DNA of 64,000 nucleotides, from assembly GCA_963707635.1 (NCBI GenBank), contig OY970173.1, positions 736,001 through 800,000 of the forward strand, read 5' to 3'. A model generated the notes under the pieces. It was not told where the DNA came from, made no database searches, and saw nothing but the letters and a program-made list of their open reading frames with translations. Shown here one piece after another: positions 36,777 to 62,334 of the stretch. This DNA comes from Candidatus Latescibacterota bacterium. Its GTDB lineage: Bacteria > Krumholzibacteriota > Krumholzibacteriia > WVZY01 > JAKEHA01. How positions within the stretch are numbered: the first letter of the stretch is position 1; the number at the start of each line of letters is the position of its first letter. Both the position numbers and the translations under genes were made by a program.

Positions 36777-38376
36777 ATGCATACCACCGTATTCTCCGGC
36801 GCTATCGTCGGAATCCAAGGCCTCGTCGTCGAAGTCGAAGTGGACATCTCGCGGGGCATTCCCGCGTTCTCGGTAGTGGGATTGCCCAACGCGGCCGTCC
36901 GCGAGAGCCGCGAACGGGTGACCGCCGCCATCAAGAACACGGGCCACCACTTTCCACTAGAACGCATCACCGTCAACCTCGCCCCTGCCGACGTCAAGAA
37001 AGAGGGATCCGCGTACGATCTGGCCATCGCGGTCGGGATCCTGCTGGCGTCGGGGCAGGCGGAAGCGACGACGGAGCGCACGCTGTTCATCGGCGAGCTC
37101 GCGCTGGATGGATCGCTCCGGCGGGTGCCGGGTGTGCTGCCGATCCTCCTCCACGGGCGTGCCGCCGGCTTTCGACGCGCCGTGGTGCCGCTCGCGAACC
37201 TCGATGAAGCCCGCGTCGTCGAAGGTGTCGAAGTGATTGCTTGCGAGAACCTGCGGGTAGCGGTGGCCATGGCGCTGGCCCCCGCACCCGCGTCGGCCGG
37301 ATCCCGCCGCAACCGCGCCGCCGGCGATCCGACGGAGGCGAACTTCGACGCTACCGTCGACGGGCGAGTGATCGTGAAGCGGGCCGACGACCCCGTACCC
37401 ACTCCGCCCGCCCCGAACTCGTTCGCGCTCGACATGGCCGACGTGGTCGGGCAGGAGGCGGCCAAGCGGGCGCTTCTCATTGCCGCGGCCGGCGGCCACC
37501 ACGTGCTCATGACCGGTCCTCCGGGGGCAGGCAAGACCATGCTCGCGCGGCGATTCGCGACCATTCTGCCGCCGCTATCGTCCGCGCGATCGATGGAAAC
37601 CACGATGATCTACTCCATCGTCGGGCTTCTTCCGGGCGGGGGGCTCATGACCCTGGCCCCGTTTCGATCGCCGCACCACAGTGCCAGCGACGCGGGCCTG
37701 ATCGGCGGCGGCGGCGTGCCGCGCCCCGGCGAAGTCACCCTCGCGCACAACGGCATCCTCTTTCTCGACGAGCTGCCCGAGTTTCGCCGGCACGTGCTGG
37801 AGACGTTACGCGAGCCGCTGGAGGAGGGGCAGATCACCATTTCCCGGGCTCGCAGCGCCGTCACATTTCCGGCCCGGTTTCAACTGGTGGCGGCGATGAA
37901 CCCCTGCAACTGTGGCAGCCATGGGAGCAAGGTGAACCAATGCAGCTGTTCTCCCTCGACAAATCGAAGCGTATCTCGCAAAAATATCAGGTCCACTGCT
38001 CGATCGAATCGCGATTCACGTGGCTGTGCAACCCGTTGAGCTCGACGCGTGGGGCTCATCGTCGGTCCGGATGACAAGCGCCGCCATGCGAGAGATTGTC
38101 ATTCACGCACGCGAGATCCAGGCGACGTCGATTCGCAGAAGTGGATGGCACGGACTGTAACGCGAGGCTCCCCGAAGGCATGTTCTCGACTTCTTGTTCG
38201 ATGGAGCCGGCGGCCGAGACGCTGTTTGTGCGCGCACAGAAAGTACTCTGGTGAGCGCACGGTCGCGGGGACACATCATTCGCGTGGCGCGGACGGTCGC
38301 GGATTTGGAAGGGAGCGAACGGATCGGAGAGCGGCACGTCGCGGAAGCAGTGGGGTATCGGAGAAGACGTGCGTGA
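36777..38376 (+). pseudogene. comM: ComM / YifB-family Mg-chelatase-like AAA+ ATPase; 3' part has three 1-nt indels (real or sequencing error)
   Basis: VGLPNAAVRESRERV, TVNLAPADVKKEG, GPPGAGKT, PFRSPHHS, LFLDELPEF, FPARFQLVAAMNPC; frameshifts near 37955, 38125 and 38248 relative to the downstream copies; ends HVAEAVGYR. Confidence 0.9.
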
Positions 38377-38919
38377 CCAAGAGCTTGCGCCGCGACATCG
38401 CTTTCCGAGACACGCGTCCAAACGGCGGCGGGAAAAAAAGCAATTCGGATCAAGAAAACACTAGACAGTTTAGTCCGTTGTTGGCAAACTGGTAATTAAG
38501 AAGGGCCGCGCGCAGTCGTCGCTACAAGGGGGGATTCGGTTGCTGACCGGAGAGCCGATGGGGTTGTCGCTGGTTCACGGCGTCATTTGCGCCGCGTGAA
38601 CCGATCCTATCTTTCTCTAGACGTTTCTCTATCTCCGATTCGCGCGTCGCCTGCCCGCGATCTCGACTCCTGAACCTACACAAGTCCCTGGTTACCCGTG
38701 GCACATCAGGTCGTCGGGGAGATCACGAAGGGGGATGGGTCAACTAGCCGCGTCTCCGGAAAACCCAGCGCGGACCACACGGGAGGTCAAGGAGTCGATA
38801 ACAAGAGATGTCGTGGATACTTTCCTTGCCTTTTTCGGTCCCGATCTTGCCGATGCAGATGAAGCTGTCACTGCGGATGGATCAAGGTTGAGGAGCAAGT
38901 CAATAGGAGGGGACTGCTG

Positions 38920-39522
38920 ATGGCTACGACCCGACGCCTTCTACCTGCCGCCATGGGGTTTGTGCTGTGTCTGCTGTGGGTAGGAAAGCAACCCTTCGCC
39001 ACAACAATTGAACTGTCCGCTACGAAAGTTTACTACTTCTGTCAGGGGTCAGATGACCCTGGGAAGGTCATTGTCTACGCGCGCATGTCGTTCAATTTGG
39101 GAAGCACGGCCGTGCGGTTCAAGGTCCAGGCGAATCCCGAACTGACGTGGACCTACCTCACCGAAACACCTTTGTTCCCCACATTCGTGGGGAACACACA
39201 GACCGGGATCGAGATCTGTTTTGAACAGTGCAACATGGACGCTCAGGCTCCGCTGGTTAGGATCGAATACATGGCGTACGGCACGAGCGCGATCTGCAGC
39301 GGACGACTGTTCGTCGTTCCGCATCCAAGCGCTGAAACAGTAGACGTGATTAACTGCAACGGCGTGCCGAGCGCAGCGATTACTCTACCGCTTGTGGTGG
39401 GCGGCATATGTGCTTGTCCCTCGGCGCGTAGCTACCCGGGGACGCCTCATGTGTTCGATTGCATGGCTGTGTTGACAAGGACGAGCACGTGGGGTGCAAT
39501 TAAGGCGCTCTACAGCAACTGA
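38920..39522 (+). CDS. Cys-rich secreted protein with C-terminal TWGxxKALY motif
   Basis: GGAGG RBS, signal peptide, ends TRTSTWGAIKALYSN. Confidence 0.8.
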   Translation: MATTRRLLPAAMGFVLCLLWVGKQPFATTIELSATKVYYFCQGSDDPGKVIVYARMSFNLGSTAVRFKVQANPELTWTYLTETPLFPTFVGNTQTGIEICFEQCNMDAQAPLVRIEYMAYGTSAICSGRLFVVPHPSAETVDVINCNGVPSAAITLPLVVGGICACPSARSYPGTPHVFDCMAVLTRTSTWGAIKALYSN

Positions 39523-39616
39523 CAATTGGAGGGGCTTATTGCTGATCGTCTGATCTGAATGTGTTTTTCAGTGGTCCATTAATGGGGCGGCCGCAACCTT
39601 TGGGGAGGAGAGAAAA

Positions 39617-42600
39617 ATGGAGTTGCGAGTCCGTCTTATTTGGTCACTTGTTTTCGTTTACCTTCTTACCTCGGCGCCGGGTCAGGCAGAGGAGATCGAC
39701 CCGGTCTACTGCGCGCTACTCCCGGATTCCGTCACACTGTCACTTGGTGGCATCGCTGAGTTGGTTCATCCATTCGGGTCGGATACTACAACCTACCCGA
39801 ACGAGTTTGACCCCGACTCAACGAGCCTGTCCAAAGCATTCTCGCAGGTCTTCAGACTTTACTTGACGGACAGCGTGTCGAATCGATGGTCGCGAAGCGA
39901 ATGGGAGGGAATAGTCACCACGATCATGAACAATGACACCACCACGACTGATGATGATGTCTTTGGTCGGGTGTGGGGCTACTTTGTCCGTGATGGGAGG
40001 GACTTGAATCCTTACTACGCGGGCGTGCGGTACACCGCCGTGGAGGAGGGCGACACGTTCACTACCATCGACTTGTACCTGTACGATGCATCGGATATTC
40101 CCTGCCCGTGCACGAGTGAATATGGCCAGACCTGCAACGGGTATTCGCAGTATTTGGGCGACAATAAACTTGTGATCAATGCCAACGATTCCCAGTGTCC
40201 TCCGGACTCAGGATGTGCAAATTGCGCGCCTATTACCCTCGAGGATATGCTGGGCATGGGCATCGCACACGAGCTTCAGCACCTCTGCTTCGCGATCAAC
40301 GATCAAAACGGCTACGCAGGCATTAACGAGACGTTGTCGACGCTCGCTGAGTACTTTATGGACGTTTGGCGTCCGCTTGCTTTTGATATTCCCTATGATG
40401 CGTCTTTCATGGACATCGAGCACTGTGATGTCCCGTCTTGCGAGTTTTGCGGACAGCCGCCGAAATACCAGGTGTACAAGCCGTGGATGATCCACCTCTA
40501 TGAAGTGTTCAAGGGAAACACGGCGGATCCTACGGACGACCTACTATACCGCTGGATTCGCAATGATGATCCTAGCGTTTTTCGACTTTACCTAAGTCAG
40601 CTGGCCGATGTGCTTTGGGACGATGACTTCGATTGGATGGGGGGCGCGGATGCCGTGGACCGTTTTACGAAAGCATACGGGGATTACCTCGTAGCGAAAT
40701 TCTGCAATGCGCCGAGTTTCAGCGCGCACGGTGAGTTTGGACATGGACCCGTTAATACCGTTGAGAAGTTCGGTTACTTCCTGGATAACTGTGACACGGA
40801 GGGGATAGGGGTTCCTGAAGAGCCAGTGGACTGCCCCCCGTACGAAAACTCCAACAACTGGGGTTGCTGGAACGTGCGCGTGCTTGCACCGTCGTACGAA
40901 TTGACTGACGACAACGAGAACGTGCTGGCGAGCGCGTTGGGTGTTTATCAGAACGGCGACGACACGCCTGCCGTCACTGAATGGGATACGTCGAGGGACT
41001 ATATTGATGTGTACGTGTGGGGAACCGATTACATCGTATTTCGCGCTGGCGCGTACTTTGAGGATGGAGGCGAGCATGAACTGCGGATCCGTGTGGGCGG
41101 AACGGACATAGAGCATAACCTGGCGATTCGACCGATTGGTCGAATCATGGCGTACGGAGCTGATCAAGACACACTCCAGATGCACCCGGATGACCTATTG
41201 TTCGTCGAACCGATGACGTTCTCGCCCGCCACGACGTCCGGGGACACGGTGCTTGCCGAAACAGTGACCGTCACGGACTTCGGGCGGTCCGTGAAGGTTG
41301 TTGTGCTCGCCATCGGTGCCGCGGGCACGAGTATCGACAGAGATTACCCGTATAACGGCTTCGTTTATGAGTACGAATATGGCGTTTTCACGCCCGGTCC
41401 ATCAACGCGTACGTGGCAAGGCGATGTCTTCGCGCTGGGCGACGTCACAGTTCTTCCGGGTGGAACGCTAGACGTCGGAGCAGGCACCCGTGTCAAGGTC
41501 TGGCCATTTGATCTTGCGCAGGGAGGCGCAGATGAGGACCGCATCGAGTTGAACGTGGAGGGTCAGCTGGTTGTTGACGGCACCTCAGCAGACCCGATTG
41601 TCTTCGATTCCTGGGACGCCGCAACGACGTGGGATTGGGTTGGCTTCTATTTCGATAGCCAGAGTGCCGGCGGGACCTTTGACCACTGTGTCATTGGCCA
41701 TGCGCTGTACGGCATTGAGTCCTACGCGCCCGTCACGGTAGCGAACACGACCATCGAGTCCTGTATCATCGGCGTGCTCGCTCGCAACGGAGGCAGCGCG
41801 CTGGTGCAGAACTGTACCCTCTCCGACATCGACTATATGGGAATCATAGTCGAGAACAACTCCACGGTCGTTCGCAATAGCACGGTGCAGCGCGTAGGCG
41901 CAAATGCGCTGGATGTCCGGTACCCAGCGGGCGTCGTGGTCCGCAACTCGACGTTCAAGGACTCGGATCAGGGCGTCTACCTGAGGTCCACGGCCTGGGA
42001 GAGCGTGGACATCGATTCCTCGTGCATCTTCTCAAACAACGACATTGGCATTAACGGGTTCGGCACAGGGACGAGCTGCGTCATCAAGAACTCTACCTTC
42101 GATGGAAACACGAGCAACGCCATCCTGTGTGATGGGGGAAGCAGCCCCGTCATTGACGGGAACGGGTTTAACTACAACGCTGTGGCTGTGTACTGCAGGC
42201 AAAGTTCTTCCCCGACAATCACGAATAATTCAATGGTGCACTTCACCGAGGGAGTTGTCGTGACGACGAGCTCTAATCCGGACATCGGCCACTACAGCAG
42301 CACGGGCAACAACCAGATCGCGTATCCCGATGACGAGAATGGAAAGTACGTCCATAATTACACGGCGTCGACGATATACGCGCAGAACAACTGTTGGAAC
42401 GTTGGTCTCTCGCCGTGTGCGCCGGCAGCCAGTTGGTTTTCGGGCTCCGTGGATCGGACACATCCAATCTGTTGCATGGTCGAAGAGCCGCAACAGGGGT
42501 TTCAGATTCCAGCCGAGCCGGGAACCGCGACACCGGTGGTGACCGCCTTGAAGGGAATCGTGCCCAATCCCTTCAATCCCACGACGACAATCCACTATGA

Positions 42601-42814
42601 CCTTGCTACGCAGGCAAAGGTTGACTTGAAAGTGTATGACGTGGCGGGCCGGCTGGTGCGCGCCCTGGTGGGCGAGACGAGGCCGGCCGGCAGTCATCAG
42701 GTGGTGTGGGATGGTCGGGACGGGCGAGGGAACCCGACCGCCAGCGGCGTCTACTTCGTCCGCATGATCGCGGACAGCCAGGTGTTCACCAAGAAGATGG
42801 TTCTGTTGAAGTAG
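39617..42814 (+). CDS. Large secreted protein: HExxH metallopeptidase-like region, right-handed beta-helix, C-terminal FlgD-Ig-type domain
   Basis: Signal peptide; IAHELQH...INETLS; repeated NSTF/SSPTI beta-helix turns; PNPFNPTTTIHYDL...WDGRD...SGVYFVRM...KKMVLLK. Confidence 0.8.
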   Translation: MELRVRLIWSLVFVYLLTSAPGQAEEIDPVYCALLPDSVTLSLGGIAELVHPFGSDTTTYPNEFDPDSTSLSKAFSQVFRLYLTDSVSNRWSRSEWEGIVTTIMNNDTTTTDDDVFGRVWGYFVRDGRDLNPYYAGVRYTAVEEGDTFTTIDLYLYDASDIPCPCTSEYGQTCNGYSQYLGDNKLVINANDSQCPPDSGCANCAPITLEDMLGMGIAHELQHLCFAINDQNGYAGINETLSTLAEYFMDVWRPLAFDIPYDASFMDIEHCDVPSCEFCGQPPKYQVYKPWMIHLYEVFKGNTADPTDDLLYRWIRNDDPSVFRLYLSQLADVLWDDDFDWMGGADAVDRFTKAYGDYLVAKFCNAPSFSAHGEFGHGPVNTVEKFGYFLDNCDTEGIGVPEEPVDCPPYENSNNWGCWNVRVLAPSYELTDDNENVLASALGVYQNGDDTPAVTEWDTSRDYIDVYVWGTDYIVFRAGAYFEDGGEHELRIRVGGTDIEHNLAIRPIGRIMAYGADQDTLQMHPDDLLFVEPMTFSPATTSGDTVLAETVTVTDFGRSVKVVVLAIGAAGTSIDRDYPYNGFVYEYEYGVFTPGPSTRTWQGDVFALGDVTVLPGGTLDVGAGTRVKVWPFDLAQGGADEDRIELNVEGQLVVDGTSADPIVFDSWDAATTWDWVGFYFDSQSAGGTFDHCVIGHALYGIESYAPVTVANTTIESCIIGVLARNGGSALVQNCTLSDIDYMGIIVENNSTVVRNSTVQRVGANALDVRYPAGVVVRNSTFKDSDQGVYLRSTAWESVDIDSSCIFSNNDIGINGFGTGTSCVIKNSTFDGNTSNAILCDGGSSPVIDGNGFNYNAVAVYCRQSSSPTITNNSMVHFTEGVVVTTSSNPDIGHYSSTGNNQIAYPDDENGKYVHNYTASTIYAQNNCWNVGLSPCAPAASWFSGSVDRTHPICCMVEEPQQGFQIPAEPGTATPVVTALKGIVPNPFNPTTTIHYDLATQAKVDLKVYDVAGRLVRALVGETRPAGSHQVVWDGRDGRGNPTASGVYFVRMIADSQVFTKKMVLLK

Positions 42815-42828
42815 TGGGAGGGATTCAC

Positions 42829-43401
42829 ATGCGCAAACTCACTGAAGTTGGATCGCTTGTTGTCGTGGCGATTGGGGTTCTTGTTGCACAGGCGCTCGCC
42901 GAGAGCACGATCGTCACAATCCCGATAGGAAACGTCACAGCTCGAGATTCCGCGCGCGGCTCGTTCTATGCCGTCACTCTTGACCTTCCAAAGGAAGTGA
43001 CGACGAACAATCTGGACCGCGTTCAGGTTGAATTCGCCGCCGACGTTGACCGCTCAAGCGCGGGCGAGACGGTGGCAACCGCGATGGTTGGCCTGTTTCC
43101 GCTCACAGAGACCCTCGGCGACGCGCGACTGGGTCTCGCGGCTGCGCAATATGACAGTGCTGCTGCATCGGTTCGGCCTGTGAAGATGGGGCAGAATCGG
43201 CTGGTGAAACTGGACGTTACGGAGACCGTCAGGGGCTGGCTGGCCGAGCCATCCAGCAATCACGGCATTGTCATCGGCACTCTGACGGGTCCAGCGGTGG
43301 GCACCGTGTCGCTGCGTGATTCATCACTTGCTCCGAGCACCGCCTTGCGAGTGACGTATTACTACAAGACGCGTTTCGGCGGGCGCGTCTCAGGCAAGTA
43401 G
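42829..43401 (+). CDS. Secreted protein (DNRLRE/CBM96-like C-terminal motif)
   Basis: GGAGG RBS, signal peptide ending ALA, LDVTETVRGWLAEPSSNHGIVI. Confidence 0.6.
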   Translation: MRKLTEVGSLVVVAIGVLVAQALAESTIVTIPIGNVTARDSARGSFYAVTLDLPKEVTTNNLDRVQVEFAADVDRSSAGETVATAMVGLFPLTETLGDARLGLAAAQYDSAAASVRPVKMGQNRLVKLDVTETVRGWLAEPSSNHGIVIGTLTGPAVGTVSLRDSSLAPSTALRVTYYYKTRFGGRVSGK

Positions 43402-43784
43402 GCAGCGGGTCGGCAATCGACACGCTCGATATGAGCGGGCGGGGCCCTCGACCATATCGAGAGGGAGCTGCCACGGCTCCAGGGCGAGGCCGACTTCATG
43501 CGCATCCAGTCCGGGACCCGGGAGGCCGTTCTTGGCGGGGCGAGGGATCGCTTCTCCCATTAGCCCGATCTTGTGCCCGTGGGCGAAGCGGGAATCGTTT
43601 AGGCCATCGTGGTTATCGGCAAGAATGATGTTGTGATAGATCTGTGCTATTCCCCGGCGCTTCCGGAAGTTCGGTCCCGCTGATCAGAGGCCGGTTCGTT
43701 GCCCTGGAGGTATAAGCTCCCAAAGGAGTAAGTGATTGAATTGAAAAGGCTAAAGGCCGTCCCCGCTGCCCCTTCCTCTCCCTC

Positions 43785-43816
43785 CTCTAAAGAAGCAGCA
43801 AAATGGCAACGAACCC
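43785..43816 (+). repeat. Conserved attachment-arm repeat 1
   Basis: CTCTAAAGAAGCAGCAAAATGGCAAC|GAACCC. Confidence 0.88.
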
Positions 43817-44285
43817 CTGCAACTGTGGAATGCACGGGAGCACGATCAAGCAGTGCACGTGTTCGCCGCAGCAGATTGAGAAGTATCTTGCGAAAATCTC
43901 GGGGCCGCTTCTCGATCGGATCGCGATCCATGTGAGCGTGCGGCCGGTTGACATCGACGCTTGGAAGTCGCCGTCGAAGGCGTCGCTGACGAGTGCCACG
44001 ATGCGCGAGATGGTCGTGCGAGCACGGGAGATTCAGGCGCGACGCTTCGCCGAAATCGACGGCATCGACTGCAATGCGCGGATTCCGGAAGGAATGTTTG
44101 CATCTGACTGCGCCATGGAACCGAAGGCGGAAGCGCTGTTCGTGCGCGCGCAGAAGTCACTGCTGGTGAGCGCACGGGCGCGCGGTCACATCGTCCGCAT
44201 CGCGCGCACGATTGCGGACTTGGAGAGAAGCGAGCGAATAGCGGAGCGACACGTCGCAGAAGCAGTGGGATATCGGGGGAGGTAA
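43803..44285 (+). CDS. ComM C-terminal fragment, copy 2
   Basis: MATNPCNCG...ISGPLLDRIAIH...IVRIARTIADL...HVAEAVGYR; open frame. Confidence 0.85.
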   Translation: MATNPCNCGMHGSTIKQCTCSPQQIEKYLAKISGPLLDRIAIHVSVRPVDIDAWKSPSKASLTSATMREMVVRAREIQARRFAEIDGIDCNARIPEGMFASDCAMEPKAEALFVRAQKSLLVSARARGHIVRIARTIADLERSERIAERHVAEAVGYRGR

Positions 44286-44336: not shown

Positions 44337-45653
44337 ATGTTACTTCGCGATGAGCACCAGGTGATTCGCGCCGGTGTTGGCAAGTCTTACGCGTGCTCTC
44401 CGGGGCAGTGTGACTTTGGCGTGCTCCTGCCACCATTCTCGCAGTTCCACTGCGTCCGTCGGCGACTAATAATTCTGGCTTCAGTCATTGTGCTCACCGT
44501 TACTTCGTCGCCAGCAACAAGCGGTCCCCCGGCTCCGATGGACATTCGCGTGCCCCTCGGGGGCATCGTCCTCCGTACAGAAACGCGTTGGGTGGCGCCG
44601 TTTGTCGAGTACACGGAGGTTCACGGCAAGAGGTGGGAGAGCCATAAGGTTCGGTGGTTTTCGGACAGTGGCAAGGTCCTGGCCGAGACCGATTCGCTTT
44701 TTTCCAACCGGGGGTTTCCATTTTGTGGCTATTTCGTCTCAGGTCCATGGAGTGGCCTGGCGTTCCACGGCATGTACAATGACTGGGAGCTGTCTGCCCC
44801 AGGTGCTGATAACGACGGTGAAGCCTCCCGGGACGGGCGGGTCTTTCTCATATGGGTACGCGGCGGCCCGACCGGTCAGGCCATCGGTGCAAACGTATAT
44901 GCGGCAGGCAAGCACGGTGCAAAACTCGGACCTTTTGCCGGCAAGACGCTTACGACGGCGCAGCTGGGGGACGACGGCAGTGTGGCGGCGCTCTTCTCGA
45001 CAGCCGCGAGCCCGGAGCGAGGGCGAGTGCTGGTCACGAACGCGAATGCGCGGATCACCATGACGTTGTCCACGACGGGAACGGAATCCGCATACGCAGC
45101 TCCCGACGGCCGCGGCGTTCTGCTAGGGCAGACGGACGGAACGATGTTCTACGTGGCGGCGGATGATAGTGCCAGACGGATTCAGATGGACCGCGAACTG
45201 CCGCCACATGCCCAGGCGATGCAGTGGGCTCCGGGGTCGGCACTTGTGTTCCTCGCCGGCTCAAAGACACGCCAACTCATACTCCTCGACTGTGATCGCG
45301 GTCGCGTGGTGTGGCGGGCGCCGAGCCTCGGGACCTACCACGTGGTGGCGTTCGATCGCTATGTGTTCGAGACCGGGCTCGCGCCTGCGTTGGGCGACTC
45401 AACATTGAGCGTCCGCGCGATCAATGTGCTCGACATCAAGACCGGCAATCTGGTCGCAACGTGGCGCTCGACCCCGCCTGCGCGCTACACGTTCAGGGAT
45501 ATCGGAAGGCTCATGGTGCGCGATCATCACCTCTACTATGTGACCGACGAGATCTTCGGCGAGATTCGACCCGAACAGGTGGTCGAAGGCGAGTCGTGCT
45601 GCACCGGGTGGGAGAGAGTGCCCGGCCTTCACCCTTCTCTCCGGAAGAAGTGA
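44337..45653 (+). CDS. Hypothetical exported protein, beta-strand-rich (propeller-like)
   Basis: Only long ORF in the unit; RRRLIILASVIVLTV signal-like segment; true start uncertain. Confidence 0.55.
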   Translation: MLLRDEHQVIRAGVGKSYACSPGQCDFGVLLPPFSQFHCVRRRLIILASVIVLTVTSSPATSGPPAPMDIRVPLGGIVLRTETRWVAPFVEYTEVHGKRWESHKVRWFSDSGKVLAETDSLFSNRGFPFCGYFVSGPWSGLAFHGMYNDWELSAPGADNDGEASRDGRVFLIWVRGGPTGQAIGANVYAAGKHGAKLGPFAGKTLTTAQLGDDGSVAALFSTAASPERGRVLVTNANARITMTLSTTGTESAYAAPDGRGVLLGQTDGTMFYVAADDSARRIQMDRELPPHAQAMQWAPGSALVFLAGSKTRQLILLDCDRGRVVWRAPSLGTYHVVAFDRYVFETGLAPALGDSTLSVRAINVLDIKTGNLVATWRSTPPARYTFRDIGRLMVRDHHLYYVTDEIFGEIRPEQVVEGESCCTGWERVPGLHPSLRKK

Positions 45654-45754
45654 CCTAGACGCTAGGGTTTCGGGGGGTGGCTAGACGTCCGGGGGAGTAA
45701 GCCACTGATGATGAAGAAGATGAAGCTCGCCTTCACCCGCCACGCCTCCCTCTC

Positions 45755-45786
45755 CCCTAAAGAAGTGGCAAAAGGGCAACGAACCC
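45755..45786 (+). repeat. Conserved attachment-arm repeat 2
   Basis: CCCTAAAGAAGTGGCAAAAGGGCAAC|GAACCC. Confidence 0.88.
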
Positions 45787-46255: not shown

Positions 46256-46428
46256 AACTCACATCAGGGTGCGGGTTCAGCAAGAGACGTGGGGCGAGGT
46301 GAAGGCACCGTATAGAGATTAGAGATGAGCCGAGCGTTGGATCGGACCGACCCACGCCCCTTTGTTTTGGCGGCTACTTGACGAAGCGAATCTGGTACAT
46401 TACTGTCATATTCGCCCCCGAAACCCCC

Positions 46429-48171: not shown

Positions 48172-48848
48172 GCAAACGCATCGCATCGATGGCGCGTGTC
48201 CTTCTTCTCGCGACCATGTCACTCGCCCCCAGGCTTACCTGGGCGCAGATCATCGCGCCGCCGCTCGAACACCGGGCGCTCGAGGCCGGGTATACGTACA
48301 AGTGGTTCCACCGCGTCATCGAGTCGGGGAGCAACGAGATCAAGTGGCAGGCGGGATCGTTGTACGCCCGCTATGGTGGTTTTCAGCGCCTCACGGTGTA
48401 CGCCGAGGGCGGAATCTGGGACGTCGATTCCTACTCGCGGTGGGTGGTCGGCGGAGGTCTGACGGGTTTGCTCTACACGCGGGGCTGGTGGTCGCTGGAT
48501 GTGGACGCGAGCTACAACGAGATCTACGACCTGGACGAAACCACGGCACGCACGGACCATCGAACCTACGGCTGGAACGCCGCGCTTGTGGCGCGCGGGT
48601 CATTTGCCGTGAGCGGGCAGCGCGTGGACCTCTACGCTGGTCCCGCGTACGTTAACGATGTGGCGGAGACATACCCGTTCAGCAGCAACGATCCGGTCCG
48701 GACCGAACCCGATCAGCACTGGGGGGCATGCGCGGGTCTCTATGCTACTGCTCTAGACTATGTGAGCGGCTTTGCATATTTACTCTACCTGGACCAACCG
48801 CAGCTTCGCCTGGGAGTGTCACTACGTTCGCGCGGGGAGACTCCATGA
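48168..48848 (+). CDS. Putative outer-membrane beta-barrel protein
   Basis: GTG overlaps upstream stop; signal peptide; alternating aromatic beta-strands. Confidence 0.6.
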   Translation: MSKRIASMARVLLLATMSLAPRLTWAQIIAPPLEHRALEAGYTYKWFHRVIESGSNEIKWQAGSLYARYGGFQRLTVYAEGGIWDVDSYSRWVVGGGLTGLLYTRGWWSLDVDASYNEIYDLDETTARTDHRTYGWNAALVARGSFAVSGQRVDLYAGPAYVNDVAETYPFSSNDPVRTEPDQHWGACAGLYATALDYVSGFAYLLYLDQPQLRLGVSLRSRGETP

Positions 48849-49516
48849 TGCACCGTGGTCTGGTGTCGACACTCGTGCTCGCAACCATCCTCGCCGACGG
48901 AAACGCCGTGCGGGCGCAGGTGACCGGCGGCATTCTGCCAGGGGGCACCTGCGAAGCCGGGCTGATGTACCACGACATCAACCGGGCCATCGAGTTCCAA
49001 AACGTGATGAAGGACGTCACGTACAGCACCTCGACGATCGTGTTTCGCTTCGGGATCACGGACGCGGCGACAGTGTCCATGGAACTCGGTGGTGGGATGG
49101 GCAGCGTCGACATAGACGACTTCAGTTACGTGGTGGGCGGGTCGGTGCAGACGCGGATGTGGTCCCGCGAACCAACCCGGGTGACCACCACGATCGCTTT
49201 CACTCGCATCCTTTCCCTGTACCGCGAGACCGGGTCGCCGGGTGGGCAGCTCACGCAGAGCGCGGATTGGAACGTACTGCTGGAGCGGGACGTTCGCCTC
49301 CGCGAACAGGCCGTGACGGTCTGGGGTGGTCCCGCGGTCTCCTTCCTGACGGCCACGCCGCAAGCACCGAATGTCGAGAACACCTGGGAGTCGAGTCAGG
49401 TCCTCGGAGGAATGGTGGGCATACGCGTGCTGGTTGCGAAGCACGTCTCGCTGTCCGGGCAGGCGTTGTGGATTAGTGCATTCGAGCCCGGCGTGGCTCT
49501 GGCCTACCGTTTTTGA
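48845..49516 (+). CDS. Putative outer-membrane beta-barrel protein
   Basis: Signal peptide ending VRA; C-terminal GVALAYRF beta-signal. Confidence 0.65.
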   Translation: MMHRGLVSTLVLATILADGNAVRAQVTGGILPGGTCEAGLMYHDINRAIEFQNVMKDVTYSTSTIVFRFGITDAATVSMELGGGMGSVDIDDFSYVVGGSVQTRMWSREPTRVTTTIAFTRILSLYRETGSPGGQLTQSADWNVLLERDVRLREQAVTVWGGPAVSFLTATPQAPNVENTWESSQVLGGMVGIRVLVAKHVSLSGQALWISAFEPGVALAYRF

Positions 49517-49572
49517 GAAGCGTGGCATGCTATTGACCTCGATGGCGAGTTGACGCCCAGGGATGCGGTTGG

Positions 49573-49995
49573 ATGAGACGATCACTCGCCCTCGCCACTA
49601 TGGCCGCACTGATGGCCTGCTCGCAACGCGGCGCTCGCGAGCAGAGCTCGGTGCCGGCGACGAGTACGGGTTTTGTCGACAAGGTTTGGACCGTCGTCGA
49701 CCCCGCGGGCGGTCCGGGTGATCTCTATGTCTTCCTCTCCGACGGCACCTTCGTCAAGACGGCGAAGGAAGCGGTGCCCACCGTCGGAAAGTGGAGTTGG
49801 GATGGGAAGCACCTCACAGTCATCGAAACTGCCCTTCCTTACCAGGCGGATATCGATTCTCTTACCAGTGCGTACCTTGGAATCACCATTCATTTCATGG
49901 AGCGGGAATACCATGTGGGACTGGTTCCGGCCACCGGGACCGAAAGAAGTGACCCAAAAGCAGTTCTTTTCATGTCGCTTCGCAACGGGGAATAG
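49573..49995 (+). CDS. Hypothetical lipoprotein
   Basis: MRRSLALATMAALMAC lipobox. Confidence 0.65.
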   Translation: MRRSLALATMAALMACSQRGAREQSSVPATSTGFVDKVWTVVDPAGGPGDLYVFLSDGTFVKTAKEAVPTVGKWSWDGKHLTVIETALPYQADIDSLTSAYLGITIHFMEREYHVGLVPATGTERSDPKAVLFMSLRNGE

Positions 49996-50022
49996 AACAA
50001 ACTAGCTGTATCACACGCGAGC

Positions 50023-50529
50023 ATGTCCATTCTGTTTACAGTATTTATTGCGGTCGGGTTGCTTCTCGGCTGGAGTCGCGATCTTTCGTTGCAGGTTTTT
50101 GCCCGACAGTTCCTGGTTTGGAGTTGCGTCCTGACCAGTCTGGTCTTTGGTCTTTTCGCCGAATTTTTGGTTGCGCATTGGAGGTTCGACGGACCCCGTA
50201 AGCGTCGATGGAGGAGCTTGCTCGGGCACATTGTGACCAACTGGCTGTTAGCTCTCGGCGTGAGTGCACTTGCACTGGCCACGCTAGCCATGCCGGTATT
50301 CGACTCGATGCGTGTTGTTGGACTCCTTGTATCGGTGATCGTGCTTGAGTTCGTGGTGGTCTGTTCAGTCGCGTCAGTCATCAATGCTCGAAGGCAGGGT
50401 CAGCCCAGGACTCGAGCCGCGTTTCTCCGGGGCTTTGGGAACTACGCTCTGCTGAACACTGTTTCCATGGTGGGCGGCGTAGCTGCTGGTCGGCTGTATT
50501 TGAACCTGTTCTATCCGGGGGTCGGCTAG
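50023..50529 (+). CDS. Hypothetical integral membrane protein
   Basis: About 5 hydrophobic segments. Confidence 0.55.
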   Translation: MSILFTVFIAVGLLLGWSRDLSLQVFARQFLVWSCVLTSLVFGLFAEFLVAHWRFDGPRKRRWRSLLGHIVTNWLLALGVSALALATLAMPVFDSMRVVGLLVSVIVLEFVVVCSVASVINARRQGQPRTRAAFLRGFGNYALLNTVSMVGGVAAGRLYLNLFYPGVG

Positions 50530-50714
50530 GGGGCGAGGGTCCGGCTAACTAGCCGTTCTGCCGACGGACCGGCGAGAGCGTAGCTAGAGTGAGTTTGGCC
50601 AAAGCCCTCGGCATAGGGACTTTCGCCGCGCTCAAGCCGTGTCCGACAGCCTCCCGAAAGGAAGCGATTGATGGCAAAGAAGATGAACGCAGCCCCGACA
50701 CGCCCTCCCCTCTC

Positions 50715-50746
50715 CCCTAAATCAGTGGCAAAATGGCAACGAACCC
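50715..50746 (+). repeat. Conserved attachment-arm repeat 3
   Basis: CCCTAAATCAGTGGCAAAATGGCAAC|GAACCC. Confidence 0.88.
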
Positions 50747-51215
50747 CTGCAACTGTGGAATGCACGGGAGCACGATCAAGCAGTGCACGTGTTCGCCGCA
50801 GCAGATTGAGAAGTATCTTGCGAAAATCTCGGGGCCGCTTCTCGATCGGATCGCGATCCATGTGAGCGTGCGGCCGGTTGACATCGACGCTTGGAAGTCG
50901 CCGTCGAAGGCGTCGCTGACGAGTGCCACGATGCGCGAGATGGTCGTGCGAGCACGGGAGATTCAGGCGCGACGCTTCGCCGAAATCGACGGCATCGACT
51001 GCAATGCGCGGATTCCGGAAGGAATGTTTGCATCTGACTGCGCCATGGAACCGAAGGCGGAAGCGCTGTTCGTGCGCGCGCAGAAGTCACTGCTGGTGAG
51101 CGCACGGGCGCGCGGACACATCGTGCGCGTTGCGCGAACGATCGCGGACCTCGAGGGAAGCGAGCGAATAGCGGAGCGGCATGTGGCAGAGGCGGTGGGG
51201 TATCGGGGACGATAG
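50733..51215 (+). CDS. ComM C-terminal fragment, copy 4
   Basis: MATNPCNCG...; 50728-51115 appears identical to 43798-44185. Confidence 0.85.
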   Translation: MATNPCNCGMHGSTIKQCTCSPQQIEKYLAKISGPLLDRIAIHVSVRPVDIDAWKSPSKASLTSATMREMVVRAREIQARRFAEIDGIDCNARIPEGMFASDCAMEPKAEALFVRAQKSLLVSARARGHIVRVARTIADLEGSERIAERHVAEAVGYRGR

Positions 51216-51309: not shown

Positions 51310-52791
51310 CTATTCCGCGGGAAGGGTGAGGACCGGCAGGTTCACGATTCCTGCTTCTTCGATGCGATCGGCCATAAGCCGATACTCGCGTGCCTGCTCG
51401 TCGAGGTTCTCCGACGCAACGCCGGTGCTTCTGGCGATTCTGCTCCGATCGAATCCGCGGCCGGTCAGGTAAGACGCTTCAAGACCGAACTCGATGAGCT
51501 TGCAGAACGATCTCCCTTCTTGATCGTCGAGGAGGCCCGATGTGTTCGAATCCGCAAAGGGCCGAAGTTGTTTGGCAATTCGCGCTACCTCACCGGAGTC
51601 TGGGGCGGCCGGCAATGCCGAACGACGAGCAGCAAGCATCGCTGCACGATCGACTTTCCACTGCCCGTACTGATCGGCCTGCATCTTTTCTTTCCAGTAT
51701 TTCTCAAGATTAGTACGTTCATAGAGCACGTTCACGGAAGGGTTTCTCAAGAATTGCTCTTCCTTAGGAATGAGCACGTCAAGCTTCTTGCCGACAAGGA
51801 GTTCGTTGCAGAAGCGAGACAGGCCTTCGCTATCCGAGGTTACCATGCGTGCCTCCAGGCCACCGGCAAATACAAAAACGACCTCGTCGCCTGCCGCATA
51901 CGAGTTCTGGAGTGCCTGAGGACTTTGAAAGAACGGTTCGACTTCTTGATACTGCTTGCGACGCTCAGCGTTGCGAGCGTCTAACTGCCGCAATTCGACG
52001 GCCGACTTTGCCATATGAAAGCCTGCGAAGAGAATGGGAATGGCCGAGACGGCTACGGCAGCGACCCCGAGTGTTCGGTGAGGTCGACTCTTGAGAAGGC
52101 GTAGGCCTTGCGCAAGGCCCGCGATCGCTAGGAGCACGAGCAGTCCCATCCCGGCGACCATCACGAAAGCGGCCAGGATACCTTCAAGCCCCAAATTGGC
52201 GCTTCTGCACCACGCAAGAAAAGCAAGAAGGAGCGCCGCAACGACCACCTCGGCAACCACGATGCACCCCGTTATGACGGGGTTTGGGCTCGAGTTTGCT
52301 ACTCTACTCACACGTGGGCTGCTGGTCGCGGGTACGCGACGCGGGCTCCTTGTCAACAGAAGCCCCACGACACACACGCCCGCGCCGAACCACGCGATCA
52401 TGACATCCAAGCCGGCGGATACCGAGGCTGTCATACCCTGCCCCATGAGTTCTCGCTGGGTGAGCCCCGAGGACATGAGGGAAGATGGGACTCTATGCTT
52501 ATAGATCGAGCAGGAAACAATCGTCACTAACCATTCAATCGCCCCAAGTCTACAGCCGTTGAAAACCAATCGTCGCCAGGAAACTGCATCGCGAAGCACC
52601 CACCAGGCGCCAATGGGGCCACCGACAAACAAGAGGACAACATTGACGGGCATCTGAACCGACATCCGGCCGTCGACACTCCCGAACAACTTACCTACAA
52701 TGCCGATGACGATGTAGGCAGAGAATAGACCAATCGCAATGGCGGCGAGTTTCTTCACAGGGCAACTCCTGATTATCAGGGTGAGTACCAA
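51310..52791 (-). CDS. Hypothetical multi-pass membrane protein with soluble C-terminal domain
   Basis: About 7 hydrophobic segments in the N-terminal half; start uncertain. Confidence 0.55.
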   Translation of the reverse strand: MVLTLIIRSCPVKKLAAIAIGLFSAYIVIGIVGKLFGSVDGRMSVQMPVNVVLLFVGGPIGAWWVLRDAVSWRRLVFNGCRLGAIEWLVTIVSCSIYKHRVPSSLMSSGLTQRELMGQGMTASVSAGLDVMIAWFGAGVCVVGLLLTRSPRRVPATSSPRVSRVANSSPNPVITGCIVVAEVVVAALLLAFLAWCRSANLGLEGILAAFVMVAGMGLLVLLAIAGLAQGLRLLKSRPHRTLGVAAVAVSAIPILFAGFHMAKSAVELRQLDARNAERRKQYQEVEPFFQSPQALQNSYAAGDEVVFVFAGGLEARMVTSDSEGLSRFCNELLVGKKLDVLIPKEEQFLRNPSVNVLYERTNLEKYWKEKMQADQYGQWKVDRAAMLAARRSALPAAPDSGEVARIAKQLRPFADSNTSGLLDDQEGRSFCKLIEFGLEASYLTGRGFDRSRIARSTGVASENLDEQAREYRLMADRIEEAGIVNLPVLTLPAE

Positions 52792-52902
52792 GAACCGAGC
52801 AAGAAGTCTGCCGCTTCGACGCGGGCGGGACCGCGGCTTTCATGAAGGAAAGTGATGGCCTATCAACAGGTTAACATCGCGTACCCACGGGGCGACACCT
52901 TT

Positions 52903-52934
52903 CCCTAAAGAAACAGCAAAATGGCAACGAACCC
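52903..52934 (+). repeat. Conserved attachment-arm repeat 4
   Basis: CCCTAAAGAAACAGCAAAATGGCAAC|GAACCC; perfect WATCAANNNNTTR at 52861-52873. Confidence 0.88.
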
Positions 52935-53409
52935 ATGTTTGTGTGGGTTCCATGGGTCGATGTTGCGGCAATGTCGTTGCTCGCCGCTTCAGATAGAGAA
53001 CTATCTCGGGAAGATCTCGGGGCCGCTATTGGATCGGATCGCGATTCATGTGGCGGTGAGACCGGTGGATGTCGAGGCGTGGTCTGGCTCGAGCGACACG
53101 ACGCGTCTCACGAGCGCCGCGATGCGGGAGATGGTGGCGCGGGCGCGAGAGATTCAGGCGCGACGCTTCGCCGACACGAACGGTGTCGATTGCAATGCGC
53201 GCATCACGGAAGGAATGTTCGCCACCTTCTGCGCGATGGAGCCGTCGGCGGAAACGTTGTTTGTGCGTGCGCAGAAGTCGCTCCTCGTGAGCGCGCGGGC
53301 GAGAGGTCACATCGTCCGGGTCGCGCGCACGATTGCGGACTTGGAGAGAAGCGAGCGAATAGCCGAGCGACACATCGCGGAGGCGGTTGGGTATCGTGGA
53401 AGGGCGTAA
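52921..53409 (+). CDS. ComM C-terminal fragment, copy 5
   Basis: MATNPCLCGFHGS...HIAEAVGYRGRA; open frame. Confidence 0.85.
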   Translation: MATNPCLCGFHGSMLRQCRCSPLQIENYLGKISGPLLDRIAIHVAVRPVDVEAWSGSSDTTRLTSAAMREMVARAREIQARRFADTNGVDCNARITEGMFATFCAMEPSAETLFVRAQKSLLVSARARGHIVRVARTIADLERSERIAERHIAEAVGYRGRA

Positions 53410-53485
53410 GTATATCGGGGGAAAGATCGACGAGGCGTCCTCCTCCGGCACGCACGACCCGTTCACTGTGGAAAGCCCTGCGCAG

Positions 53486-55882
53486 CTACTTAAGCAACAG
53501 CATTTTCCGCGACAACGTTGTCTTGCCTGTACTCAGTCGGTAGAAATAGATGCCAGATGCAACGGGCCTTCCCGAATCATTCTGGCCATCCCAGATCGCC
53601 TCATGCGTGCCGGCTTGAGTCATTCGATTCACGAGTGTCCGCACCAGCGATCCGTCAGTAGAATAAACACGAAGTTTGACCAACGATGCTGCGGGCACAA
53701 TGTACCGGATACTCGTGAGGGGATTGAATGGATTTGGACGGTTCTGCAGCAGTTCCGCTGCGAGCGGTGGCATCGATACTTCAACCGGGACCGACAAGGA
53801 GGAACCGGAGTCGATCAGTGCTTCCAGGGTGTAAGTGTACGTGAAGCCAGGTCTCGCAGTCTCGTCAATGTAACTTCTCGCTTGCGGATCAAGGAGGTTC
53901 GGTTCGAACTCCAGGCCTTCAGATTGCAGGCGATGCACCCTGAACCCATTCACACGCTCATCCGCCTGCACTGACCACGTCAGCCGGACGCCGGTTGACG
54001 TCGCGCGCGCATCGAAAGAGGTGATCAAAACGGCGACGGGGTACTCCGGTTCGCGGCGCAGAATCGCGCCACCACTTCCAACCATTGTTCCGGCATCAGC
54101 GCCGGTCATGCAGATGCCGAAAATGTCGCCAAGATAGCTCCCCGCCATGCCGCTGCGTTGCCATTTCCAGGTCAGGCCGCCGTCGGTCGTAAACCTCACG
54201 TCGCCCCATTCGCCCACTGCGGTGCCGTTCAATAAGTCGCCGAACCAGACGTCGTTGAGGTTCCGATGGGTTCCGGTTTGGACACGCGTCCACGTATTGC
54301 ACCCATCCGTCGTGCGAACAATGGTTCCGTTGTCGCCGACGACCACGCCCGTATTCGCATCGAGGAAGAAAACCGCGTTGTACGACTGACGCCATGGAAT
54401 GAGTGACTGGACCCAGGTCGCCCCTCCGTCGGTCGTTCGTATCAGGTTTTGAATCCATCCAACAACAATGGCAACTCCGTCCACGGCACAGACATCGGTG
54501 TAAAGGGAGAGCGGCGTATTTGTCTGCGGCGTCCAGGTTACGCCTCCATCGGATGTCTTGTAGACTTCGTTCCAACCAGCGATGTACCCGGTCTGTGCGT
54601 CATCGAACGACACGGAATAGAGGGGAGATGTCGTGTCGCGGGTCCGACGCGTCCAGGTGTTACCGCCGTCGTTCGTGCGAATAATGTAGCCGTCGTCTCC
54701 GACGGCGTGACCATGATCGGGATCCGTAAAGTGGACGCCACGCAGCCTCGAGGCAATGCCGCTCGTCTGCGGCGTCCATGACACGCCGCCATCCTCGGTG
54801 CGATAGATAGCGCCGTTGTCGCCAACAACAGTTCCCTGCAGACCGTCCAGAAAATGGACCCCATGGATGCCGCTATATGTGAAGCTCCTGGACATCTGCT
54901 CCCAGCTTGCACCGTCATCTACGGAACGAAGGATGATCCCGTTGTCACCCACGGCCAGCGACACCGAGCCGTTCGACGCGATGCCGTGCAGGGCGCGTTC
55001 GGTATTGCTGATGCTGGTGATCCAGCTGGTGCCGCCGTTCGAGGTACGAATGATCCGCCCGCCGTAGCCGACGGCGATGGCGCGGGTGGAATCGATTTGG
55101 ACTACGGATCCCAGGATCTGTTGGGTCGTTACGGGCTGGGAAGACCATGTCAGCCCGCCGTCGGTCGTGCGCACCACCATTCCTGGCCCCCCGGTTGCCG
55201 TGCCGTTCGCGGCATCGGAGAAGGAAACGGAACGCAGGTCGGTCTGATACGATCCAACGTACTGGTTTGACCACGTCAGCCCACCGTCGGCGGAGAGATA
55301 GACAGCGGCTGTCATGAAGCCCGTATCCCAATCGGTGATGCCGCCGGCGGCGATGATCTGATTGATCCCCAAGACCCAGAAGTCAACGACCGTGAATTCG
55401 GGAGGGAGAACGCGCGTCTGCCACGTTGCGCCTCCATCGTCGGTCCGGATCAGGTTGTTGTAGTAGTCCGACACGAAACCGGTCACGCCATCCAGAAGGA
55501 ACACAGCCTCCAACTGGGTCGGCGCCGGACTTGGCGCGAAGTCCCAATGTGCGCCGCCGTCGAAAGTCCGTAGCACGACATTGCCGCTTCCCACGGCAAG
55601 GCCGATGCTGGTTGTCCCGAAGGAAACGTCGCGAACATACATGGTGGTACGTGTGTCGATATCCGTCCACGTCAGTCCAGCATCGCTGGATCGAATCAGC
55701 GTACCGCCGTCACCGACAACGATTACAGTGTGGTTGTCCAGAAACGTGGCGGCTCGCAGGGTACTTCCGGTGGGTTGGGGATTCTGCCAGCCCCAGGGGG
55801 GCTCAGCGGCATGAAGCGGAAAAGAGACAAACGATGCGATACAGAGGGTGAGACTCAAAGCGGGCAATGAAAAGCATCGCAT
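53486..55882 (-). CDS. YCF48/BNR-repeat secreted protein with C-terminal FlgD-Ig-type domain
   Basis: Signal peptide; many VGxxGxIxRTxDGGxTW repeats; QNRPNPFNP...WDGQND...SGIYFYRL...RKMLLLK. Confidence 0.88.
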   Translation of the reverse strand: MRCFSLPALSLTLCIASFVSFPLHAAEPPWGWQNPQPTGSTLRAATFLDNHTVIVVGDGGTLIRSSDAGLTWTDIDTRTTMYVRDVSFGTTSIGLAVGSGNVVLRTFDGGAHWDFAPSPAPTQLEAVFLLDGVTGFVSDYYNNLIRTDDGGATWQTRVLPPEFTVVDFWVLGINQIIAAGGITDWDTGFMTAAVYLSADGGLTWSNQYVGSYQTDLRSVSFSDAANGTATGGPGMVVRTTDGGLTWSSQPVTTQQILGSVVQIDSTRAIAVGYGGRIIRTSNGGTSWITSISNTERALHGIASNGSVSLAVGDNGIILRSVDDGASWEQMSRSFTYSGIHGVHFLDGLQGTVVGDNGAIYRTEDGGVSWTPQTSGIASRLRGVHFTDPDHGHAVGDDGYIIRTNDGGNTWTRRTRDTTSPLYSVSFDDAQTGYIAGWNEVYKTSDGGVTWTPQTNTPLSLYTDVCAVDGVAIVVGWIQNLIRTTDGGATWVQSLIPWRQSYNAVFFLDANTGVVVGDNGTIVRTTDGCNTWTRVQTGTHRNLNDVWFGDLLNGTAVGEWGDVRFTTDGGLTWKWQRSGMAGSYLGDIFGICMTGADAGTMVGSGGAILRREPEYPVAVLITSFDARATSTGVRLTWSVQADERVNGFRVHRLQSEGLEFEPNLLDPQARSYIDETARPGFTYTYTLEALIDSGSSLSVPVEVSMPPLAAELLQNRPNPFNPLTSIRYIVPAASLVKLRVYSTDGSLVRTLVNRMTQAGTHEAIWDGQNDSGRPVASGIYFYRLSTGKTTLSRKMLLLK

Positions 55883-56033
55883 CGAAGCGGCCCCATCTGC
55901 GGCTTAATGCAGCGAAATTGTACCACTCCAAGAGGGAACCTGCAACCTTCCGATTCTATCCCGCGCCTGAACCGTTTGTGAAGGGATTGGAAATGAAGAA
56001 GCTAGGGGGCAACCTGCCCCGCCCGACAATCTC

Positions 56034-56065
56034 CCCTAAAGAAGCAGCAAAATGGCAACGAACCC
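56034..56065 (+). repeat. Conserved attachment-arm repeat 5
   Basis: CCCTAAAGAAGCAGCAAAATGGCAAC|GAACCC. Confidence 0.88.
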
Positions 56066-56546
56066 CTGTTTGTGCGGATTCCATGGGTCGACGATTCGGC
56101 AGTGCCGTTGCTCGCCGCTTCAGATTGAGAACTACTTGGGGAAGATCTCGGGGCCGTTGCTGGATCGGATTGCGATTCACGTGAGCGTGCGGCCGGTGGA
56201 CGTGGAAGCGTGGTCGGGTGTCGATGGTGTGACGCGCATGACGAGTGCCGCGATGCGGGAGATGGTGGCGCGTGCGCGCGAGATTCAAACGCAGCGCTTC
56301 GCCGACACGAACGGCGTCGACTGCAACGCGCGCATTCCCGAAGGAATGTTTGCAGCGCACTGCGCAATGGAAGCTACCGCTGAGGCGTTGTTCGTGCGGG
56401 CGCAGAAATCGCTCCTTGTGAGTGCGCGGGCGCGCGGTCACATCGTGCGAGTCGCACGGACGATTGCAGACCTCGAGGGAACGGAGAAGATTGCGGAGCG
56501 TCACATCGCGGAGGCGATCGGGTATCGGGGGAGGGATTCACGGTAG
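56052..56546 (+). CDS. ComM C-terminal fragment, copy 6
   Basis: MATNPCLCGFHGS...HIAEAIGYRGRDSR; open frame. Confidence 0.85.
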   Translation: MATNPCLCGFHGSTIRQCRCSPLQIENYLGKISGPLLDRIAIHVSVRPVDVEAWSGVDGVTRMTSAAMREMVARAREIQTQRFADTNGVDCNARIPEGMFAAHCAMEATAEALFVRAQKSLLVSARARGHIVRVARTIADLEGTEKIAERHIAEAIGYRGRDSR

Positions 56547-56665
56547 TGATCGAGCTTTCTGTCGCCGCCGCGGTCGTTCCGGGCGGTTGACGTGCATCTT
56601 CCTCAAGCCTTCAACTACGCGCGGGGCAACCTCAGCTTCACCATCAACGGAAGGGAGCACTCACC

Positions 56666-57073
56666 ATGTGGGCTCAAGCAACCCAGAAAGCACATGGATT
56701 GCGTCGTATCGGGTGCCATCGTCCTGACCCTTGGGGAGGCCTATGGCTTCCGGAGGCCCATGCGAACCCCGGCACAACGCTCGATCCGCAGAACCCGAAC
56801 GCGACGTTCACGCAGGAAGGCAGTCAAACGTTCACACTGGGGCCGGTGTTGTTGCTCACAGACCAGTCGTTGTCCGACTTCGTCGCGTTCTTCGCGCCCG
56901 ATGCGGATGCGGCTCCGGGCACGTTCTCGTCGGTCGAGTTTGGTTGCCGCAGCGTCGAGGCGCAGTCCAGCGTGGAGTACGCAGCCTTCCGTTCGAGCCT
57001 CGTCGCACCGCTGGCGGTAGAGACGACAACATGGGGTCGAATGAAAGCATTGTATAGAACGGACCGACCGTGA
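56666..57073 (+). CDS. Small protein with C-terminal TWGxxKALY motif (N-terminus possibly frameshifted)
   Basis: GGGAG RBS; ends AVETTTWGRMKALYRTDRP; hydrophobic VVSGAIVLTLG lies in another frame. Confidence 0.6.
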   Translation: MWAQATQKAHGLRRIGCHRPDPWGGLWLPEAHANPGTTLDPQNPNATFTQEGSQTFTLGPVLLLTDQSLSDFVAFFAPDADAAPGTFSSVEFGCRSVEAQSSVEYAAFRSSLVAPLAVETTTWGRMKALYRTDRP

Positions 57074-57137
57074 CGGAATCTGGAGGACATCATTTGTCGG
57101 TACGGGTTGCGACGGCGTAAGCATCGGCGGGCGTTAC

Positions 57138-57283
57138 CGGATGCGGTTCACGTCGCGGTGCGACCTGTGGATGTGGAGGCGTGGGCGGGTACCGACGGTG
57201 CGGCGCGAATGACGAGTGCCGTGATGCGCGAGATGGTCGTGCGGGCACAGAAGACGTTGCTCGTGAGCGCACGGGCGCGTGGC
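57138..57283 (+). pseudogene. Decayed, internally deleted ComM C-terminal fragment, copy 7
   Basis: HVAVRPVDVEAWAG...MTSAVMREMVVRA|QKTLLVSARARG; middle missing, no arm. Confidence 0.8.
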
Positions 57284-62328: not shown

Positions 62329-62334
62329 CGTCGA

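Follow-up and report, generated by a model that had tools for sequence, protein, structure and literature searches.

Cassettes stacked behind comM with replacement ends of the gene and the relic of a comM-targeting large serine recombinase

Disruption of comM by mobile elements is a standard example of the conflict between such elements and natural transformation (PMC12378983). Elements with a large serine recombinase (LSR) that integrate in comM/yifB have been described for phage WO (sr1WO; PMC9203015) and for alphaproteobacterial pipolins (PMC11551731); in the accounts of integration given there, they interrupt the gene or lie next to it, with a recombinase of their own. Here we describe the comM locus in a window, i.e. 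the whole analysed stretch of 64,000 nucleotides (G000:C1:736001-800000), from the 3.2-Mb single-contig genome G000 of a Candidatus Latescibacterota bacterium. A stacked cassette array behind comM is real: alignment confirmed five open copies of the last 160 codons behind the gene, and a sixth that is decayed, as the initial annotation of this DNA had it; the decayed copy is located at 57143-57283. We lean towards reading the array as a stack of recombinase-less derivatives of a comM-targeting LSR element, inserted in trans at a TG dinucleotide, each with a spare comM tail. The array shares with the known comM/yifB elements the serine recombinase and the target, and the family members examined here cut the same TG. 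It differs in that the gene reads through a 480-bp replacement tail, in a minority orientation (4/120 homologs) and in units without an enzyme.

Tandem islands made by serine recombinases are also known from other targets. At ssrA of Dehalococcoides, islands with a CcrB-like serine recombinase are stacked with the newest next to the target, and the 3' end of the target is duplicated (PMC3146451); 15 of the ssrA islands are reported without an integration module (PMC3146451, PMC5704250). That target is a tmRNA with a 20-bp repeat, whereas the array uses an internal codon of a protein gene, and its 160-codon tail remains constrained as coding sequence and also offers a homology handle. Streptococcal cis-mobilizable elements (CIMEs) are tandem islands with and without the serine-recombinase module at one target (PMC5704250), and the array likewise consists of tandem units at a single target that are bounded by att sites and lack integrase or transfer genes. 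Composites of the staphylococcal cassette chromosome (SCC) at rlmH/orfX are LSR-made tandem cassettes at a protein gene, with older ones pushed downstream and recombinase-less att-bounded units (PMC13739063). In SCC the site is described at the extreme 3' end of the gene, with short att repeats and usually resident Ccr enzymes (PMC13739063), whereas the target here is comM; P0037, a protein of the LSR family treated below, scored 130 bits against the CcrB model (cut-off 900), and neither a Ccr nor an rlmH target is involved. Additive islands are furthermore known at tRNA genes of Alteromonas (PMC4119200).

The initial annotation called the array integron-like. The likeness lies in small recombinase-free cassettes, one entry site and variable order, and the difference in the lack of a resident integrase, in serine-type chemistry and in unit ends at which no attC hairpin was noted. 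No whole IntI was found beside the entry site; G000 holds only XerC, XerD and a 3' fragment of intI. The units are bounded by an arm, the TG and a tail, and none of the 25 longest inverted repeats listed falls at the arms. The array is a variant of tandem LSR islands or recombinase-less CIMEs with a probably self-restoring protein-gene target, not an integron. Tsy and Tn6022 also have comM as target, using a tyrosine recombinase/TnsF or Tn7 machinery at a site near Walker B, and they split the gene (PMC10293859). Here no extra tyrosine recombinase was found, and the site lies about 45 codons downstream of Walker B.

In the open literature, no description of LSR units with a long comM replacement tail was found (subscription journals and preprint supplements were outside reach). 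A published LSR survey reportedly names Mg chelatase as a target. The word 'chelatase' is absent from the main text of the LSR survey preprint 10.1101/2021.11.05.467528. The arrangement had initially been thought undescribed; this stands for the long comM replacement tail within the open literature, and not for recombinase-less units at one target, already known as CIMEs.

The features of the window are as follows.

36777..38376, + strand: comM/yifB, Mg-chelatase-like AAA helicase (TIGR00368, 445 bits against a cut-off of 362)
37905..37906, + strand: target-site core dinucleotide TG, first two bases of the Cys codon directly after AAMNP in AAMNPC
38920..43401, + strand: unit 1 cargo; TWG-tail protein, beta-helix/FlgD protein and DNRLRE-like protein, all secreted-type
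43447..43683, + strand: decayed LSR 3' end, comM-targeting family, P0037/P0122 subgroup, two TAG stops
43730..43817, + strand: arm 1, half of the element's attachment site on the recombinase side
43818..44285, + strand: TG core and comM tail copy 1
44337..45653, + strand: unit 2 cargo; single secreted-type open reading frame (ORF) without family match
45700..46255, + strand: arm 2, TG at 45788 and comM tail copy 2
46378..50529, + strand: unit 3 cargo; five ORFs, lipoprotein, secreted or membrane
50663..51215, + strand: arm 3, TG at 50748 and comM tail copy 3
51310..52791, - strand: unit 4 cargo; multi-pass membrane ORF
52851..53409, + strand: arm 4, TG at 52936 and comM tail copy 4
53486..55882, - strand: unit 5 cargo; BNR/FlgD secreted protein
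55982..56546, + strand: arm 5, TG at 56067 and comM tail copy 5
57143..57283, + strand: decayed comM tail with internal deletion, without arm
62266..62488, + strand: 3' relic of an integron-type integrase and 154-bp attI-like segment
63659..63812, + strand: second copy of the 154-bp attI-like segment

The open tail copies are located at 43803, 45773 (ORF frame from 45791), 50733, 52921 and 56052, and the whole of G000 contains six Mg_chelatase_C matches, every one inside the comM array. The cargo has a GC content of 57-62% against 66% for the genome. All 11 clear cargo ORFs of units 1-5 have a hydrophobic N-terminus, a lipobox-like cysteine or several hydrophobic segments, as judged by eye and hydropathy and not by a signal-peptide tool, in keeping with the first description of unrelated secreted, lipoprotein or membrane cargo in either orientation.

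The junctions lie at the TG of the cysteine codon (37905, 43818, 45788, 50748, 52936 and 56067). The copies had been thought to start at GAACCC, which misplaced the crossover point, since the bases before the TG belong to a variable arm. The patterns used for searching arms stopped seven bases short of the junction, so that the TG was not built in. It was found in register at 25 of 25 arms and at none of seven chance pattern matches; the seven bases that precede it belong to the arm, not to comM, and vary. The matches set aside as chance lacked an upstream arm or tail (L035, L039, L040, L047, L054, L055, L057), and five repeats of loci already in the set (L034, L036, L037, L038, L045) were counted once. 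The same arm does precede each of the five copies, with a length of about 85 bp rather than the 32 bp first given; this length is counted from the motif AAGTGATTGA to the TG, and the last 30 bp are the most conserved.

Three arms away from comM tails (L008, L031, L049) are joined via the TG to a reverse-complement half-site that resembles the comM 5' half, as expected if a 2-bp core sets the orientation; a 2-bp core that fixes orientation is described as serine recombinase behaviour (PMC3783163). The half-site of L031 is the native end of thiD, and the cargo of L008 has a tail fragment at its far end. The L031 arm (2578, G011:C261) is placed just past the thiD stop codon, and its cargo resembles that of unit 1 (beta-helix/FlgD and DNRLRE-like). 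L008 (G002:C54) also has a second ccmC-ccmD copy, 97% identical and with an internal deletion, which flanks the inverted comM unit. L008 was considered as a free circle and rejected, as its 127-base terminal overlap is this ccmC-ccmD repeat, present a second time in the same genome, and gives no evidence of a circle.

The enzyme family was recognised through a profile built from 27 LSR family members. It matched 43447-43680 (E 5e-12), 135 bases before the TG of arm 1, where Pfam LSR searches had missed the relic and the family alignment alone detected it. The relic contains two TAG stops and is 72% identical to P0037 (E 5.5e-29), or about 70% identical to both P0037 and P0122, which fall within a six-cluster subgroup whose genes end at the same place, before the arm. 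This makes the arm the half-site on the recombinase side and unit 1 a deleted LSR element in the minority orientation. The initial annotation had seen no recombinase in any unit, which the decayed LSR 3' end in unit 1 corrects.

Comparison with other family members places the cut at the same position. The comM gene of G047 is cut at the same TG and abuts a complete LSR gene reading into the junction, and a prophage contig has the same arrangement; these LSR-split loci, L095 and L114, share the TG with the 25 arms. Of 20 LSR or two-copy loci examined from the class, L095 alone abutted a cut comM. The family is large, with 5468 of 8000 scored candidates at E 1e-100. Among the best 120 homologs, whose orientation classes were assigned by motif, 103 run into the comM 5' half on its reverse strand, 4 enter the 3' half co-directionally, the arrangement found here, 3 continue through an intact attP into an XRE tail, and 10 were unclassified. 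P0004, P0094 and P0098 are LSRs fused to an XRE helix-turn-helix domain, with the fusion spanning the attachment site, so that integration would sever the tail from the enzyme; members of the P0037 subgroup end short of the site and have no such domain. The arm was at one time taken as the XRE-tail half of attP (minus-strand LPFC), a reading given up when the orientation became clear from the LSR relic; the two halves are similar to each other. In viral scans the arm pattern, the tail and P0001 gave no match and the LSR alignment gave 3 loci, one of them at comM, while the plasmid scan gave no close LSR.

The relic also invites a simpler history, in which autonomous tail-carrying LSR elements each lost their LSR in place and never moved without their own recombinase, i.e. 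classical CIME formation. This is a known route (PMC5704250), and in addition to the decayed LSR end in unit 1 the far units are more decayed (the relic at 57143 and a 13-base tail at genome position 800899). It leaves unexplained that the same LSR-free unit, with a near-identical end, recurs in different arrays, and that an LSR relic lies upstream of only 1 of the 25 arms within the available flanking DNA, where no whole LSR gene was found next to an arm. As a full account we regard it as improbable. One of the five units, unit 1, is the deleted remnant of a recombinase-bearing element, a possibility raised initially as an argument against cassettes.

Related genomes contain further fragments of Mg_chelatase_C behind comM, within the genus and in metagenome contigs. 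Among 208 genomes of the class, at least three tail matches were confined to the genus of the window (G000 6, G002 4, G013 3); two each were found in the genus genomes G009, G012 and G014, and in six genomes outside the genus. Matches to the arm pattern occurred in 6 of 201 genomes, each a member of the genus; relatives with the same arm are labelled Ca. Krumholzibacteriia / Latescibacteria. The metagenome scan gave 18 matches to the arm pattern, of which 14 were real arms, 13 of them followed by a comM tail.

Two or three tails occur on one contig in independent assemblies (L002, L004, L006, L041, L042, L043, L046), which excludes as a general cause the chaining of strain variants into a false tandem by the assembler. 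For the array itself this artefact is the least credible of the explanations considered, as the tails are too divergent to be confused. In its favour can be counted the suspicious indels in the comM tail, that a search for public reads of the source genome found none, and that none of the public contigs joins two of the array's units. Two public runs contain short stretches that match the comM 5' part and units 1, 2 (tail), 3 and 5 at 100% identity, none bridging units; their single joint between arm regions, 45655 to 50641 at depth 2.6, may stem from a similar arm.

Cassettes move as units, since one LSR-free end was found with three tails and cargo changes position between species. In L042, L044 and L046 the cassette end is 95-100% identical over the 200 bases to the left of the TG. 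After the TG, identity falls to 70-80% in the first 40 bases, and the three tails differ from base +1 (L044) or +7; L042 and L046 contain the whole unit without an LSR. Conversely, identical tails stand behind different arms (43818/50748 and L042/L050). Cargo recurs at different array positions across genomes: a 2.5-kb segment of the unit 5 cargo occupies position 1 behind comM in G012 (89% identity), and the unit 3 lipoprotein at 49573 also precedes an arm in L049. An identical cargo order in all relatives, named initially as a finding against cassettes, was not seen. The farthest units are the most decayed in the window array, which is not so in L046 or G013, and the proposed polarity, with the newest unit next to comM, is loosely supported.

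In 9 of 9 genus genomes with the junction available, comM continues via the TG into a tail, and neither an interrupted gene nor the second arm at attL expected of conventional LSR elements was found in them. The tail copies are 75-81% identical to one another, except that 43818 and 50748 (copies 1 and 3) are identical over 368 bases. Their mismatches fall mainly at third codon positions, from which it follows that the tails diverged as working comM ends in different lineages; the ATG of the arm is not conserved (TGG, GGG or AGG instead), so the tails are not separately translated genes. Neighbouring tails are 73-80% identical with longest common runs of 15-26 bases, and at 20-27% divergence they are poor substrates for homology-driven insertion.

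The tails also bear on a history in which LSR elements split comM, transformation with a whole comM then replaced the left end, and the right junction is a passive scar; in a later phase, units would have spread as linear DNA with the comM tails as homology handles. Unusual recombinase chemistry would be unnecessary, and ComEC and DprA family genes are present. The tails are mosaic, with identity shifting inside the tail (G012 against 52936, 43818 against 50748, L042 against L044), and distances of tail and 5' half are uncorrelated over six comM genes (Spearman -0.14, p 0.62; a weak test on non-independent pairs). This history fails to account for one and the same arm being joined to different tails from base +1, or for junctions away from comM that are exact to the TG; neither a split comM nor a relic of a second arm was seen in any of the 9 genus genomes or in the scan for arms, and the divergence of neighbouring tails speaks against it. 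We consider it rather unlikely, with a better claim than the loss of LSRs in place.

A host tyrosine recombinase (XerCD or an integron integrase) might instead move the units. G000 yielded no whole recombinases other than XerC and XerD, and intI relics and attI-like segments are common beside the tails: an intI relic and the 154-bp module directly follow comM tails in L010, L013, L046 and L052, which indicates that mini-integron platforms ride inside comM units, and G009 has a whole integron integrase. A serine enzyme is indicated by the 2-bp core, by the cut site shared with LSR elements and by the LSR relic, and by inspection the arm has no attC hairpin or dif-like layout. A host tyrosine enzyme is largely excluded, and we give it very little credence. 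A tyrosine integrase acting in trans was also rejected, as none of 20 non-Xer or weak Phage_integrase loci from the taxonomic family had an arm or a piece of comM.

The derivation from a comM-targeting LSR element would work as follows. The mobile form would be a circle whose site reads arm-TG-tail. If such a circle recombined with comM (5' half-TG-tail), the gene would be restored with the incoming tail and its former tail displaced to the far side of the cargo, so that each insertion would regenerate the target for the next round, newest unit first. As none is whole in G000, the recombinase would be supplied by visiting intact elements of the P0037/P0122 type, and the stack is probably not active now in this genome. 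A second route, homologous recombination within the 480-bp tails, may swap, convert and delete units; tails do exchange independently of cargo. The site, the enzyme family with its relic, the continuity of comM through the site and the shuffled cargo are the observed parts of this scheme. The cassette model proposed initially is thus retained in its site-bounded units with a replacement comM tail, where an LSR-free end is re-joined to different tails at the core, and is changed in its crossover; the whole recombinase that it placed in trans was not found.

Several points weigh against this derivation. A listing of all recombinases in G000, in which a whole LSR or resolvase was looked for, gave none, so that the trans-acting enzyme first envisaged is not encoded in this genome; the comM-targeting LSR family was absent from 16 other genus genomes examined, many of them fragmented; no intact element of the form tail-cargo-LSR-arm was found, and no excised circle was observed. 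Serine integrases, as reviewed in PMC3783163, pair only attP with attB, and attL/attR are blocked without a directionality factor. The proposed circle site is attR-like, with no attP-type motif seen in its tail half, and its insertion into attB would be non-canonical for serine integrases. The unit shared with G012 is 65-77% identical next to the TG and 82-92% identical towards the tail end and in the cargo, which means that the G012 tail did not travel whole with the cargo; its likeness to window tail 4 is confined to the part towards the tail end, and switches inside the tail are seen in other pairs as well. Short-homology recombination in the 20-30 conserved bases of the arm could likewise produce breakpoints at the core. 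The 5' half-site of G012 is degenerate: its comM (L004 3310) reads AAQNPC, though a cassette occupies position 1. Finally, the own tail of comM in the window has three 1-base indels (about 37958, 38125 and 38247) within 0.3 kb, against 3 frame changes in 57.6 kb over 55 orthologs elsewhere. The gene is therefore not intact in this assembly, by what may be either decay or mis-polishing.

If an attR-like circle does recombine with attB, the usual directionality rule of serine integrases would be broken, and the target would be a self-regenerating landing site for iterative DNA insertion. A lineage of the element family appears to have switched to leaving comM whole, with the site as a reusable loading dock for surface proteins. 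Tentatively, and with more doubt than belief, one may go further and see a serine-recombinase counterpart of the integron, in which circles of arm and coding tail would be reversible without a directionality factor, the target would regenerate itself, and a genus would gather cassettes of surface proteins and mini-integrons, newest first, without losing comM, its transformation helicase. Candidate enzymes (P0037, P0122-P0126) are now named along with the exact sites.

Beyond the window end two further arms occur, at genome positions 800899 and 803750 (L001 4900 and 7751). The first is followed by only 13 comM-like bases and the second is joined via the TG to the last part of the 154-bp segment; between them lies a frameshifted Ser/Thr kinase-TolB gene. 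A decayed integron-like region covers 62266-64000 of the window and L001 2266-10600 (genome 798266-806600). In it, every intI 3' relic leads into a 154-bp segment that ends in GTTAG/GTTGG, and then come cassette-like ORFs with attC-like sites.

A C-terminal tail of the TWGxxKALY type is found on cargo proteins at 38920-39522, 61554-62117 and 56666-57073, the last of which looks degraded. Two short Lys/Arg/Ala-rich repetitive histone-like ORFs are located at 31660-31743 and 36310-36573, one of them directly upstream of comM and genus-conserved. A separate low-GC island lies 3' of tilS (window 14077-17839), and the matching place in G002 holds a 410-aa tyrosine integrase (L059).

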